A stretch of DNA of 46,075 nt, filler included, from Candidatus Woesearchaeota archaeon (GTDB lineage: Archaea; Nanobdellota; Nanobdellia; SCGC-AAA011-G17; CAYFGV01), in the NCBI GenBank assembly GCA_964342845.1. It is 7 parts of 7 records of this genome, joined end to end, with 100 filler letters (N's around TTAATTAATTAA, not from the genome) between each part and the next. Parts side by side here need not be neighbours in the genome. Positions count along the whole stretch, not along the records: positions 35,841 to 41,656 come from CAYFGV010000027.1; positions 41,757 to 46,075 come from CAYFGV010000028.1; 5 more parts are not named here. One strand, given 5' to 3'. Shown here in pieces: positions 40,101 to 46,075 of the stretch; within the stretch, counting starts at the first letter, position 1; the number at the start of each line of letters is the position of its first letter. Made by a program: the position numbers.

Positions 40101-43100
40101 TTTTGTTTATAAAATCTATTCTACTTTTCGTAATCCTAGAAAGGAAGGGTTTTTTATGGAGGATGAGAAATCTGGAGATTTTTGTGTAACTGATGATATA
40201 GACTTCTTTGTGCGTGTTTTTCGTAATTACCGCAATAGGTTGGATTATAGGGGCGATAGAAGAGAATTTTGTACATATTCTGATGGTGATTTTGGAAGGC
40301 CTTTGATACCTTTAAATTTATATCTACTAAGGAGATTTAACAAAAAAGAGATAGAAGACTTAGAAAGGGAGATTGATAAAGTATATTATTTGAGTGGTTT
40401 ACCCGTAAATTAAAATAAAGAAACTCTAAAGAATAATCTTTTATACCTCTTTAATCTCTAATTTTTATGATATATGAACCCCAAGAAGACTCTTATATGT
40501 TAGAAGAGCAAGTAAAAAAACTAGTTAAAAATGTTAAAGTTTTAGATATGGGAACTGGTTCAGGGATACAAGCTAGAGCTGCTTTAGAGAATAACTGTGA
40601 AGTTTTAGCTATTGATATTAACCAAGAAGCTGTTGATTATGTTAAGAAAAAAGGTATTAGAGTTATAAAATCTGATTTATTTTCAAATGTTGAAGGAAAG
40701 TTTGATGTTATTATATTCAATCCGCCTTATTTGCCTGAAGAAGAGTTAGAAGATGAAGAATCTAAGTTATGTACAACTGGTGGAAAGAAAGGAAGTGAGA
40801 TTGTTGAAAGGTTTTTGAAAGAAGTTAAACATTATTTAAATGAAAATGGTTTTATTTTGGTTGTTGTTAGTTCTTTGACTGGAAAAGATCTTTTTGAAGG
40901 TTTTAAATTTGAAGTTTTATCTGAAAAAAGTTTCTTTTTTGAGAAGTTATATGCTTATAGGTTATTTGTAGAGTAACTGTTGCTTTTTTTAAGATATTCT
41001 ACGCAATGATCAATTATAGTCTCTTCTGGCATTTCATCTGTAGGCATTCTTTTTTTTCTAAGAAATCTCTTAAGATATTCTAAGGATTCTGTTTTATTTG
41101 TTATACTACTTGAAACACAATAAGCTCCATATTTTAAGGACAGCTCGTTAAATTCTATTCTTTCTATATGTTCTTTTAAATTTTTAGGATTTGTTATATC
41201 TACCATAAACTTTAGGAAAATTTACCCTTATTTAAGCTTTATTGTTTATTAAAAATAAATCCATAAGGTTTATAAATGAGTTATTACTCAAAATTAACTA
41301 TGGTTAATAAAATTATAACACCGCAGGAGGTTGAAGTTTTTTACTTTATACCTGCAATAAGAAAGAAAATGGCTGTTTGTTTTAAAAAGCAAGGCTTGCA
41401 ACAAAAAGAGATTGCTCAAATTTTAGGTATTACAGGGGCTGCTGTTAGTCAATATTTACATGAAAAAAGAGCTAAAGAATTTAAATTGCCTAAGAAAATA
41501 GCTAAAGAAATAGAAGAATCTTGTAAGAAAGAGAATAAAAACATAGTAATGGAAATAACTAGAATCTTAAATCTATTAAAGAAAGAAAGATGTAGTTTGT
41601 GTTCTGATTTTAATGAATTTAATTGTAAAGGATGTTAAAATGTATTTAGATAATTCNNNNNNNNNNNNNNNNNNNNNNNNNNNNNNNNNNNNNNNNNNNN
41701 TTAATTAATTAANNNNNNNNNNNNNNNNNNNNNNNNNNNNNNNNNNNNNNNNNNNNTAAAGTAAGTTATTTGGGTGTGGATAGTGGTGGTTTTGTTTCTT
41801 TGGAAGAATTAGAGAGTTTAATTACTAAAGATACTTTTTTGATTAGTATTCAGTATGCTAATAATGAGGTTGGTGTGATTCAAGATGTTAATGGAATAGG
41901 TAAGATAGCTAAAAAACATGGAGTGTGTTTTCATACAGATGCTTGTCAGGCTGGTCAGTTAGATTTAAGTGTTAAAAATATTGATTTAATGACTTTGAAT
42001 TCTAGTAAGGTTTATGGTCCTAAAGGTGTTGGATTGTTATATGTTAGAAAAGGTTTGAAATTAAAACCTATATTATTTGGTGGTGGACAGCAAGGTGGTT
42101 TGAGGTCTGGAACTGAAAATGTTTCTGGTATTATTGGTTTTGCTAAAGCTTTAGAGTTAAGGCAGAAAGATAAAGATTTAGTTAAGTTAAGAGATTATAT
42201 GATTAAAGAAATTTTGAAGATTGATAAAGCTGTTTTAAATGGTGATTCTAAGAGGAGATTACCTAATAATATTAATGTGTCTTTTATAGATGTAGAAGGG
42301 GAGAGTTTAGTTTTGTTATTGAATGAGTCTGAAATTTATTGTTCTACTGGTTCTGCTTGTGCTTCTTCAAAAATAGAACCTTCTCATGTTATTTTAGCTG
42401 TTACTGATAGTCATGAAAGAGCTCATTCTAGTTTAAGGGTTAGTTTTGGTTATGATTTTACTAAGAAAGATGCTGATGTTTTTTTGGATGTTTTGAAGGA
42501 GAGTGTTGAAAAATTAAGGAGGATTTCGCCGTTATGAAATGGTTTTATTCGGATAAGGTAAAGGATCATTTTTTGAATCCTAGGAATGTTTTTAAGAGTG
42601 AAGAGGAAGAAAGGAATTTTAAAGCAGATATTGTTGGAGAAGTTGGAAATGTAATGTGTGGAGATATTTTAAAGATTTATTTGAAAGTTAAGGAAGGTAA
42701 GATTGTTGATTGTAAATTTAAGACGTGGGGATGTGCAAGTGCAATTTCTTCTATGTCTATGTTATCTGAGATGATTAAAGGGAAAACCTTGGATGAGGCT
42801 TTGAAAATTAAACCAAAAGATATTACTGGAAATTTAGAAGGTTTGCCTCCGCATAAGGTTCATTGTTCTGTTTTGAGTTTTAAGGCTTTGAGGGAAGCTA
42901 TTGAGAAGTATAAAGAGAAAAATAAGTTTTAGAGTTTAATTAGTTAAATAATCTGATACATACCCTTTGTATTTTGTTTTTAATTTCTTAGGTAATGTTT
43001 CATAAGAACCAAATTCTCCTCTACAATTTTTGCTTCCACATTTACATTTTAAATCTTTTTTTGACATATTTGCTAGCTTTAATAATTCGGGAGCATAGTT

Positions 43101-46075
43101 TGGGACAATCATTGCATAGTCAATAGTAATTTCTTCATCTTTTTTTATATTTCTCATGGCTACAACTTCATTTCTATTTTTAATGCCGCAACTTGGATTA
43201 CATGAATGACATAGATATTTTACTGGAGGAAGAGGATCTATATATAATTCAAAGCCTATAGGAACTGTATACATACTTGGTTTTTTAGTTATTGGTCCGA
43301 ATACTACAAAAACAGTTTCATTTTTCTTGAAACCTCTTTTAGCAAAAATACTTTTTCCATATTTTTTAGTGTCTTTTATATAAATATTATTTTCAAACAT
43401 TTTAATCAACATAAGCCTCTAATATTGCAGTTTTGTGTTTTATTTTAAGTTTTTTTGTTAATTCTGGAAATGTTTTTCCTTGTAATAAATCAAGAGTTAA
43501 TGCATCTATTTTACCAAGCCCAGGATAAGGAATTAAATCATAAATTACTTTTTTATATTTAAGCCCTTTGATAAAAATAGGGAGTTCATTAAGAACATAG
43601 GAAGATAAAATTTCAAATTCTTTTTTATTAAACTTGAAAATCGTATTTTCTTTAGGAATATCTATTATTTTTTTATAAAATATTGGATTTGTTTTAAATT
43701 CTGTTAGAATAGCTTTTTTAGCAGATTTATATTCTAGATCATTTTCTATATCATTCCATAATAATATGTGGACTTTTTGTTGTTGTTCTTGAGGGAGTTG
43801 TCTTATAATTTTAGCTATAGATTGTTTAATCTCTTTTCCTTTCTTTAATGCAACAGATAAGCTTCTTTTTTTAGTATATTTGTTTCTAACTTCATAATTT
43901 ATAGCATGAATTTTATCGGCAATCAGTATTACAACGTTTTCTTTTGTATTCTCTAAAGCCCAAAGGATATATTCTTTTATATTCTGTTTTGTGAAATATT
44001 TGTTACCTAAGCTTATACCTATCCAAATGTTAAATTTTTTGCTCTCAACTTCCTTTTTATCTGTATTTAGGTAATTTACTATCTTCATGAACATTATTAG
44101 TCCAGTATCAATTTATAAAGTTTGTTAAACTTGGTTAATCCAAAAGTTATCTGTTTCCCTCCGCATAAAGTTCATATTTCAGTATATTTAGAATTACTTT
44201 GAGATCTACTAATTACATCAAAACATTTATAAACTCTAACTAAATCTAAAATTTAACCCATTTGTACTACATCAAGTAGGAGGGAAAAATAAATGAATCA
44301 AAAAGCAATCTTAGAATCTGTAAAAAAATTAAGAGAAATCTCAAAGAAAAGAAATTTTTCTCAAACTTTTGATCTAATAATTAATTTACAACATATTAAT
44401 ATTAAAAAACAAGATGAAAAAGTTGATTTGTATATCCCTTTACCTCATGGAGTTAAAAAACCTAAGATTTGTGCTTTAATTGGTAGAGAATTAGAAACAA
44501 AATCTAAAGATTTGTTTTCAAAAGTTATTTTTAAAGAAGAGTTCATAAAATATGGTAAAGATAAGAAATTAACTAGAAAGTTGGCTTCTGAATTTGATTA
44601 TTTTGTAGCACAAGCTAATTTAATGGGAGATATTGCTACTGCTTTTGGTAAAGTTTTAGGTCCTAAAGGGAAAATGCCCAATCCTAAAGCTGGTTGTGTT
44701 GTACCGCCAATTATTCCTGATTTAAAACCTATTGTAACTAAATTAGAAAAAACAGCTAAATTAGAAACAAAAGGTGAATCTATTGTAAAGGCTTCTGTAG
44801 GTAAGGAAGATATGAAAGACGAAGATGTAGTTGAGAACATTTTACTTGTTTTTAATACATTAATACATAAACTTCCTCAAGAAAAAAATAATGTTAAATC
44901 AGTTTACTTGAAATTAACTATGGGTCAGCCAGTAGAGGTTACAGATAAGGGTGTTAAATTAAAAGAAGTTGTTAAAAAAGAAAAGAAAGTTGAAGAAAAG
45001 CCAAAAGTAGAAAAAAAGGTTGAAGAGAAAAAAGAAACAAAGGAAGAACCTAAAGAAAAATGAAAGCGCATGTTTCAGAGAAAAAGAAAATAGAAATGAA
45101 GAAGCTGAAAGAGTCAATTAGTAAAAGCTCTGTAATTGGAATTCTAGATATTACTAATCTGCCTTCTGCTCAATTTCAACAAATGAGGAAAAACCTTCCT
45201 GATGTTAATATGAGAATTTCTAAAAAGAGAATAATTAGAATTGCTTTAGATGAATTAAAAGATTCTAAAAAAGGTATTGAATTGTTAATTCCTACTTTAG
45301 AGAATTGTATGCCTGCTTTATTATTATCAGAAGAAAATCCATTTAGGATTGCTTCTATTTTAGCAAAAAATAAGACTTCTGCTCCTGCAAAAGCTGGACA
45401 GATAGCTCCAAATGATTTAGTAATCCCTGCAGGTCCGACTCCTTTTGGTCCAGGACCTATAATTGGAGAATTAGGACAAGCTGGCATTAAAACAGCTATA
45501 GAAGATGGAAAAATAGTTGTTCAAGAAGATGCTGTTGTTGCTAAGAAAGGAGATGAAATTAGTCAGAAAATTTCAGACTTATTATCTAAATTTGGAATAG
45601 AACCTATGGAAATAGGTTTGAATATAATAGCTATATTTGAAAATGGTTTAGTTTATTCTTCAGATGTATTATCTGTTGATGAAGAAGAATATAAAAATAA
45701 TATTTTATTAGGCCACCAAGAGGCATTTAGTTTAGCTTTAGGAGTAGGTTACTTAACTGAAGATACTGTTCCTGTTTTAATTAAAAAGGCTTATAAAGAG
45801 GCTAAATGTTTAAGTGAAGGGGCCGGGATTTTAACTGAAGAAACAGTTAAACCTTTGGTTTCCAAAGGTGTTAGTGAAGCTAATTTACTAAAATCAAAAC
45901 TTAATATTCCTGAAGAATCAAAAGATCAAGTAAAAGAAGAAGTTAAATCAGAAGAGAAAGATTCTGAGAAGAAGACAACACCAAACGAAGGACTAGCAAA
46001 TTATTCAGAAGAAGATTCAAAGAAGGCTCAGGAAGTTATCAAAAAAATGAAAGATAATAATATTGGAGGTAATTA

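Follow-up and report, generated by a model that had tools for sequence, protein, structure and literature searches.

Does the SET-domain protein encoded directly behind a cyclodipeptide synthase (CDPS) in this Candidatus Woesearchaeota genome (GCA_964342845.1) act on what the CDPS makes, or do the two genes only lie side by side? The window, i.e., the whole stretch of DNA that was analysed (46,075 nucleotides), contains three features relevant to this question:

43402..44094, minus strand: predicted CDPS of the XYP subfamily, related to ParcuCDPS ('clade A'), 230 aa, intact
42936..43412, minus strand: compact SET-domain methyltransferase of a CDPS-linked clade, 158 aa, alternative start at 43400
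44112..44119, minus strand: palindromic TATA-like octamer upstream of the CDPS; its end is 17 nt from the first ATG of that gene and 23 nt from the second

The two open reading frames overlap by 11 nt, as an earlier note on this DNA had stated, and its family assignments and neighbouring genes (IscS, IscU, archaeal uL1 and archaeal uL10) were also recovered. The CDPS matches PF16715 (E 4.8e-14, 53.1 bits, curated cut-off 27) and TIGR04539 (74.2 bits, cut-off 45), and the SET protein matches PF00856 (E 2.9e-9, 37.7 bits, cut-off 22.4). Because its homologues are 228 aa long, the CDPS probably starts at its second methionine (44088), the end that the earlier note gave. The SET protein may start at Met5 (43400), 1 nt past the CDPS stop, and the coupling of the two genes is tight under either SET start. 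Their junction is spanned, with no indels, by contigs of DNA runs X1 (0 differences; possibly the source sample) and X3 (1 difference; run X4 appears to be the same data). The octamer is a weak candidate for an archaeal TATA element; it would fit a leaderless transcript from 44088, and it could also serve the divergent uL1 gene. No tRNA genes were found in the window, and scans for terminators and sigma-70 promoters, a model that does not cover archaeal promoters, gave nothing above shuffled sequences. The GC content of the CDPS gene (24.5%) is under the 5th percentile (26.3%) but its GC3 is normal, thus there is no clear sign of recent transfer.

The catalytic residues expected of a CDPS are present (S28, D60, Y166, E170 and Y190-P191). 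Four of them (S28, Y166, E170 and Y190) are invariant among 62 homologues and align to those of ParcuCDPS, and the XYP signature, in which Tyr-Pro replaces Tyr-His, is invariant in the same alignment. Judged by these residues, the protein is a member of the XYP subfamily and is predicted to form a cyclodipeptide. Our search returned 161 homologues rather than the 207 reported before, and a family search detected Pfam CDPS in 18 of 401 genomes of the phylum, not 7. Judged by the CDPS, the cassette is missing from 59 of 60 close relatives. Lrp/AsnC regulators are encoded opposite the other CDPSs of the phylum in 7 of 17 loci, suggesting amino-acid-responsive roles. The P1 pocket is hydrophobic (WGLAWIFI). 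We sought a pocket (P1/P2) signature peculiar to SET-linked CDPSs and found none; given that P1 also varies between CDPS clades, the pockets do not point to any one side chain as the target of methylation.

The link is far more regular when viewed from the SET side. The CDPS-linked SET proteins form one clade (SH support 0.997, 76 of the 201 domains in the tree) that takes in all close SETs linked to a CDPS, and no SET known to lie in another context falls within it. A CDPS-like gene is adjacent or fused in 22 of the 22 members whose context was directly seen (window included); the earlier note knew of four cases. Among 80 metagenome SET loci, each of the best five (at least 174 bits) is fused to a CDPS-like gene or has one upstream, while none was found beside the other 75 (at most 155 bits; 53 with at least 700 nt upstream) or at 29 non-clade SET loci of the phylum (0 of 104 in total). 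A set of 400 CPR genomes yielded just one further member of the clade, located 8 nt behind a CDPS-like gene. The best 11 of 37 long SET matches are CDPS-SET fusions, with the CDPS first in all; this part was recognized by precomputed Pfam annotation in eight, by Pfam at E ~2e-5 in two and by our own clade-A profile in one. The two fusions reported previously, of 374 aa (P0031) and 389 aa (P0038), are real and have the same order. Indirectly, seven exact contig-size coincidences connect the homologue tables of the two proteins (offset control: mean 0.8, maximum 3).

The reverse does not apply, as a SET gene of this clade accompanies clade-A CDPSs in 2 of 31 intact genome loci, Pfam CDPSs of the phylum in 1 of 18 (the window itself) and the divergent clade-C genes described below in one of four loci. 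The dependence is one-way: most CDPSs do without the SET, which is what an optional tailoring enzyme would lead one to expect. SETs of other types are likewise present near clade-A CDPSs (loci L005, L015 and L027, and L003 at 4.7 kb). These four are short and group together, yet short SETs look common in these genomes and are under-sampled in our tree, and we did not count them as support. In the collection of viral contigs searched, one distant SET but no relative of the CDPS turned up, hence nothing there hints at carriage by phages.

The CDPS-like partners of the SET clade belong to three very divergent lineages, A, B and C (hhalign probability 99 for B against A and 46 for C against A). 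Clade C comprises 216 clusters at 50% identity, has no Pfam model and has one of the catalytic Tyr residues replaced by Phe. Its predicted fold (pLDDT 97) is that of a CDPS, and every top Foldseek and VIA match is a CDPS (best Z 14.9, rmsd 3.2, 195 residues aligned). A profile of three clade-C sequences matched no CDPS, whereas one of 67 sequences did. Clade C is fused to SET in P0268 and P0279, and the SET protein of the window is 64% identical to one encoded behind a clade-C gene, indicating that the CDPS partners have been swapped. Another clade-C gene is overlapped by a class I methyltransferase instead of a SET. Used as bait, the SET partner exposed a large CDPS-like family that Pfam does not model.

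The product of 42936..43412 is a member of the SET-domain superfamily: its model (pLDDT 92) has only SET and PR domains as structural matches, and an ESM Atlas search returned generic SET clusters only. It combines a minimal I-SET, a CHSC motif, DY99, post-SET cysteines C123, C125 and C130, and a C-terminal extension like that of BurB, a SET enzyme acting on a small molecule. H69, D98-Y99 and the three cysteines are kept, DY and the cysteines being invariant in the alignment, and the Asn of the N-H-S motif is Cys here and in 25 of 54 clade members. In protein-lysine methyltransferases the lysine channel includes the Tyr of the EYxG strand and a Phe or Tyr before DY, and the substrate strand pairs with peptide substrates. 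The CDPS-linked clade has I/V at the position of the MLL1 EYxG Tyr (50 of 54), Ile at the aromatic site before DY (54 of 54) and Pro within the substrate strand (53 of 54), and its I-SET is shorter than that of MLL by 14 residues. In these alignments the aromatic channel residues are absent, and the active site looks nearer to that of BurB than to that of a lysine methyltransferase. Among wider relatives of the SET there are fusions with enzymes of amino-acid or peptide chemistry (cyanophycin synthetase-like, PLP decarboxylase).

Such an enzyme might, like BurB, methylate a free amino acid (Met to S-methylmethionine), being coupled to the CDPS metabolically through surplus amino acid or aminoacyl-tRNA and never placing the methyl group on a cyclodipeptide. 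The BurB-like architecture, in which T49, H69 and Y99 match T73, H93 and Y124 of BurB, and the Lrp/AsnC regulators fit this reading. We nevertheless consider it unlikely, as it leaves repeated fusion to three CDPS lineages unexplained, no BurI/D/E-type genes were found among the scanned neighbours of clade members, and H72 and Q75 of BurB, often kept in the wider family (24 of 45 each), are replaced by Y48 and P51.

Alternatively, the SET could methylate a protein and so regulate either the CDPS or some component of translation, perhaps limiting the drain on aminoacyl-tRNA. Its top sequence and Foldseek matches are histone lysine methyltransferases, DY and the post-SET cysteines are invariant, and a Lys directly after the catalytic Asp is common to SET-linked clade-A CDPSs. 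Clade-A CDPSs without a SET have this Lys too, however, and it was not seen in clade C; the missing channel aromatics, the Pro in the peptide-pairing strand, the swapping among partners of almost no pairwise sequence similarity and the SET-less majority of CDPSs make protein methylation improbable. Hitchhiking of two accessory genes as one cassette with no joint pathway, which would suit the patchy distribution, the varied neighbours, the GNATs and other SET types that also adjoin CDPSs and the abundance of SETs of any kind (153 of 401 phylum genomes), is very unlikely given the absence of CDPS-like neighbours from non-clade SET loci, and one co-transfer is insufficient because three CDPS lineages are followed by the same SET clade, the fusions are independent and the CDPS-then-SET order is constant.

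We return to the reading that the SET methylates the cyclodipeptide or its intermediate, which we consider rather likely. It extends the two-enzyme proposal of the earlier note, which is strengthened by a SET clade whose observed members always adjoin a CDPS-like gene or are joined to one in a fusion, and by the BurB-like active site. The pair would be an optional biosynthetic cassette of two genes, CDPS then SET. As its homology and its intact set of catalytic residues suggest, the CDPS would load an aminoacyl group from aminoacyl-tRNA onto Ser28, add a second one and cyclise the dipeptide via Tyr190 to a diketopiperazine, with a P1 residue that is probably hydrophobic (Phe/Leu/Met-like). Genomic context and active site suggest that the SET would then use SAM to methylate the diketopiperazine or an aminoacyl or dipeptidyl intermediate by BurB-like proximity catalysis, which makes a soft nucleophile the likely target. 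Within this reading, the leading candidate, at somewhat short of an even chance, is a heteroatom of a side chain, above all the sulfur of Met, which would yield a sulfonium diketopiperazine; the free alpha-amine of an intermediate is less likely, and a ring N or O slightly less likely again. Counting against the reading are the many SET-less CDPSs, the lack of a single predicted target, the higher rank of MLL types over BurB in sequence searches, the replacement of R70, H72 and Q75 of BurB by other residues, the 48 of 76 clade members that contribute no context, and SAM synthetase, which was not found in the 85%-complete genome.

A wider reading, possible although on balance doubtful, is that the SET clade acts as a portable enzyme that tailors dipeptides derived from aminoacyl-tRNA, has been repeatedly recruited and fused by three distant CDPS lineages (one unannotated), and produces diketopiperazines with a permanent charge (sulfonium or quaternary-amine), for use by DPANN and CPR organisms on hosts or neighbours. 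Methylation of a CDPS product or its intermediate by the SET would itself be a second small-molecule chemistry for the SET fold, after BurB/MSMT, a new class of cyclodipeptide tailoring enzyme, and a two-gene, directly testable handle on the metabolites for which genome-reduced DPANN and CPR cells spend aminoacyl-tRNA and SAM.

Among known systems, MLL/SET1 enzymes share the SET fold, HSC, DY and post-SET cysteines, but the SET protein of the window lacks their I-SET helix, EYxG-strand Tyr and aromatic before DY; no histone families were found in the 85%-complete genome. MLL1 (Z 13.2, rmsd 2.7, 124 residues aligned) and BurB (Z 13.0, rmsd 3.8, 131 aligned) tie for best structural match. BurB (PDB 9L4T/9L4V) is a methionine S-methyltransferase acting on free Met in a DMSP methylation pathway (PMC12542666), and SET domains are thus not known only as protein-lysine methyltransferases, as had been assumed. 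Both proteins are compact, with the same minimal I-SET length and 31-residue G-to-H spacing, a non-Asn residue before the HSC His (Leu in active BurB) and a C-terminal G..LP extension, and the first two lysine-channel sites are occupied in BurB by Val and Met. The two are 24% identical; R70, H72 and Q75 of BurB become S46, Y48 and P51, only T73 of its pocket (R70, H72, T73 and M132) is kept, and the post-DY linker is longer than in BurB, with a conserved Tyr106. BurB works with a decarboxylase, transaminase and dehydrogenase set, whereas the partner here is a CDPS, with no DMSP-pathway context.

The best solved homologue of the CDPS (E 5.7e-29, residues 11-226) is ParcuCDPS (CDPS 90; PDB 7QAT/7QAQ and related entries), likewise from an ultra-small microbe, Parcubacteria bacterium RAAC4_OD1_1. 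According to the excerpts consulted of PMC7613923 and PMC5816076, it makes cyclo(His-Pro) and cyclo(His-Glu), and no SET partner is described in them. Such a precedent, together with the members that Gondry 2018 lists for this CDPS clade from CPR and archaea, removes the claim of a first natural-product pathway tied to DPANN/CPR. The two enzymes have the XYP signature in common, and S26, D58, G84, Y167, E171 and Y191 of ParcuCDPS correspond to S28, D60, G86, Y166, E170 and Y190. The His-selecting P1 residues Y55, E174 and Y189 are replaced by L57, I173 and I188 (WGLAWIFI against GAYAWELY), which makes a product with His improbable.

Methyltransferase tailoring of CDPS products is itself established, from the parts consulted of PMC5767969, PMC5816076 and PMC2922099: the N-methyltransferase Amir_4628, Ndas1145/1149 of the nocazines and C-terminal fusions. 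The novelty claimed for tailoring as such thus falls. A CDPS-SET pairing was not found in the literature searched (most subscription papers were outside its scope). In those systems and in the window alike, a CDPS is followed by, or C-terminally fused to, a SAM-dependent methyltransferase that is optional across the family. The known examples in those parts are actinobacterial and the Actinosynnema enzyme, where a type is stated, is UbiE-type; here, unlike in the UbiE-type systems, the methyltransferase has a SET fold, occurs in DPANN and CPR and is common to three CDPS lineages.

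The gene pair lies on the minus strand of C28 (4319 nt), the final contig of the window.

42936-43412, minus strand: SET-domain methyltransferase ORF, 158 aa (Pfam SET E 2.9e-9)
43402-44094, minus strand: cyclodipeptide synthase (CDPS) ORF, 230 aa (Pfam CDPS E 4.8e-14; TIGR04539 74.2 against a cut-off of 45 bits)

The two ORFs overlap by 11 nt, and contigs from two DNA sequencing runs (X1 and X3) span the junction without indels. The pair is flanked by convergent iscS-iscU on one side and divergent archaeal uL1-uL10 on the other, and this SET is the single PF00856 match in the whole genome (573 kb, 85% complete). 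The small genome and its archaeal ribosomal proteins point to a DPANN-type archaeon as the probable host. The CDPS more likely starts at its second methionine (44088) than at its first, because the homologues are 228 aa long and an octamer that we take to be TATA-like, judged against the archaeal consensus, ends 23 nt before 44088.

The CDPS is complete and typical of an already known subfamily, with S28, D60, Y166, E170, Y190 and P191 invariant across 62 homologues. Its best solved homologue (E 5.7e-29) is ParcuCDPS, a CPR enzyme described as producing cyclo(His-Pro) and cyclo(His-Glu) (PMC7613923). Gondry et al. 2018 list CPR members and one archaeal member of this CDPS clade, with no activity given there (PMC5816076); our pocket mapping reproduced the P1 and P2 strings reported for that archaeal protein. 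The three His determinants of ParcuCDPS are replaced by L57, I173 and I188 in the window CDPS, whose P1 string is WGLAWIFI. Among the rows seen in that paper, the nearest characterised P1 motif is FGLAWSLL, from an enzyme with cFF and cFY as main products and cFL and cFM as minor ones (PMC5816076). Since the authors term the pocket code degenerate, we infer from the sequence only that P1 is probably hydrophobic.

The SET domain was followed with a profile of 54 close homologues. Among the best 80 of 572 confirmed metagenome loci, each of the top five (at least 174 bits) is fused to a CDPS-like gene or lies immediately downstream of one; the partner belongs to the window's own CDPS lineage (clade A) in L037 and L040 and to an ORF family without Pfam match (clade C) in L036, L038 and L039. 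A CDPS-like neighbour is absent at the other 75 of these 80 loci (at least 700 nt upstream in 53) and at 29 SET loci of the window's phylum, one of which (L121, from genome G388) is also a leaf of the SET tree. Some SET occurs in 153 of 401 genomes of the phylum, a tally that includes three flagged as unpublished (G388, G423 and G362), and the CDPS-linked SET clade is found only in the window's genome. Two of 401 CPR genomes encode it, the centre genome and one other; the latter served as a blind test, and its SET lies 8 nt behind a clade-C gene. Of 37 matches among longer proteins, the 11 best all combine an N-terminal CDPS with SET, and the CDPS Pfam label is absent from the remaining 26; source labels of the fusions include one Nanoarchaeota and one Flavobacteriaceae. 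Seven further CDPS/SET pairs are suggested indirectly, the longest contig being equally long in both homologue tables (the control averaged 0.8 and never exceeded 3). All 22 direct contexts of the clade are CDPS-linked: besides the window itself, the SET side gave 6 loci and 11 fusions and the CDPS side 4 cases. These are kin and not independent trials.

The partners fall into three lineages. Clade B consists of six fusions (P0190-P0194, P0196) and aligns with clade A at an hhalign probability of 99, yet with little pairwise similarity. Clade C comprises 216 clusters at 50% identity and keeps the Ser, Glu-Glu and Tyr-Pro-Gly residues, with the first catalytic Tyr replaced by Phe. Its profile matches the Rickettsiella CDPS 5MLP (E 6.6e-5), and in both fold searches with its model (pLDDT 97) CDPS structures rank first, above TyrRS. 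Two clade-C proteins are fused to SET. Members of this family include L036:172-912, L039:960-1703, L157:2040-2738 and proteins P0223-P0372; P0227 has an additional N-terminal region of ~285 aa with a weak HTH match. Among the CDPS-SET fusions, P0189 carries an extra C-terminal SnoaL-like domain, and the 297-aa fusion at L040:2007-2900 lacks the CDPS C-terminal Tyr-Pro region and the SET N-terminal strands, apparently through internal deletion or an assembly artefact.

A phylogeny of 201 SET domains places every A-, B- and C-linked case in one clade (SH 0.997) of 76 leaves, some of which enter twice, as a locus and as a database protein. Clade A accounts for 11 adjacent SETs (7 of them by the indirect test) and 6 fused ones, clade B for 6 fusions, and clade C for 3 adjacent and 2 fused SETs, which leaves 48 without known context. 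None of the 76 has a known non-CDPS context. The partner types are interleaved, and the window SET is 64% identical to that behind the clade-C gene of L036.

Seen from the CDPS side, the SET link is optional. Intact clade-A CDPSs are present at 31 of 33 genome loci; the clade SET is directly downstream in two of these 31 and other SET types are adjacent in three. Whole-genome searches of those 31 genomes and one relative found the clade SET in the same two only. SET-linked clade-A members are concentrated in a single sub-branch (support 0.987), where four SET-less loci are placed as well. Pfam CDPS occurs in 18 of 401 genomes of the window's phylum, with SET within 1.5 kb only in the window's. 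Clade C occurs in 4 of 401 CPR genomes; one copy is accompanied by the SET, another overlaps a class I methyltransferase gene and two have neither. Such one-way dependence, of the SET on the synthase but not the reverse, is what would be expected of a tailoring enzyme.

Other genes accompany these synthases. Near some clade-A CDPSs there is another SET lineage, made up of short proteins (L005:3813-4250, L015:6675-7067, L027:4985-5380, L003:895-1278), on a branch of its own (support 0.991); at L027 the CDPS is surrounded by a class I methyltransferase and two SETs. Peptidase S51 (dipeptidase E/cyanophycinase family) lies at most two genes downstream of clade-A CDPS in 3 of 32 loci (L012:4797-5453, L019:6987-7616, L030:6680-7366), overlapping in one. 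At 7 of 17 other Pfam-CDPS loci of the phylum (L164, L166, L169, L171, L172, L175, L179) a tandem Lrp/AsnC-type regulator of ~340 aa is divergently adjacent, with EamA or SSF transporters downstream at two; we read these as an amino-acid-responsive module of other CDPS lineages. Also in the phylum, L167 has an AlaE-like exporter, and an archaeal CDPS (L178:922-2064) carries a C-terminal extension of ~190 aa without Pfam match.

We consider it probable that CDPS and SET act in two successive steps to make a methylated cyclodipeptide or dipeptide. The methylated atom cannot be read from sequence because the CDPS pockets differ between partner clades, a difference compatible with a P2 residue that they have in common, for example Met, and also with a generic amine. 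The window genome, which is incomplete, yielded no SAM synthetase, so SAM may be imported.

The active site bears on the substrate class. The window SET model (pLDDT 92) fits the SET-domain Met S-methyltransferase BurB and the protein-lysine methyltransferase MLL1 equally (Z 13.0 and 13.2), and MLL-type enzymes lead the sequence-search rankings; the active-site details favour BurB. The I-SET subdomain equals BurB's in length and falls 14 residues short of MLL's. In place of the Tyr in the EYxG strand of MLL, 50 of the 54 close homologues have I/V (Val in BurB); at the aromatic site preceding DY, all 54 have Ile (Met in BurB); and 53 have Pro in the strand with which peptide substrates pair. 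The enzyme is not a BurB orthologue: R70, H72 and Q75 of BurB correspond to S46, Y48 and P51, and the linker after DY is longer than in BurB, with a conserved Tyr106. BurB is described as needing no catalytic base for the S-methylation of free Met (PMC12542666). That the window SET methylates a free amino acid is unlikely in our estimate, and that it methylates a protein, as MLL1 does, is equally so. Hitchhiking of the pair seems very improbable.

More distant SET relatives again occur in a small-molecule setting, as fusions with PLP decarboxylases and with ligases resembling cyanophycin synthetase. In these compact SETs (L051, L066, L113, L106; P0204, P0205, P0208-P0219) the fusion partner is such a ligase, an Orn/Arg decarboxylase domain or a domain of agmatine-deiminase type, and the fusions suggest additional undescribed pathways methylating small molecules. 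For the probable CDPS-SET pathway, we found no published account of a SET-type partner of CDPS; subscription papers or survey supplements other than Gondry's could contain one. Methyltransferase tailoring of CDPS products, fusions included, is already described in three papers (PMC2922099, PMC5767969, PMC11610984).
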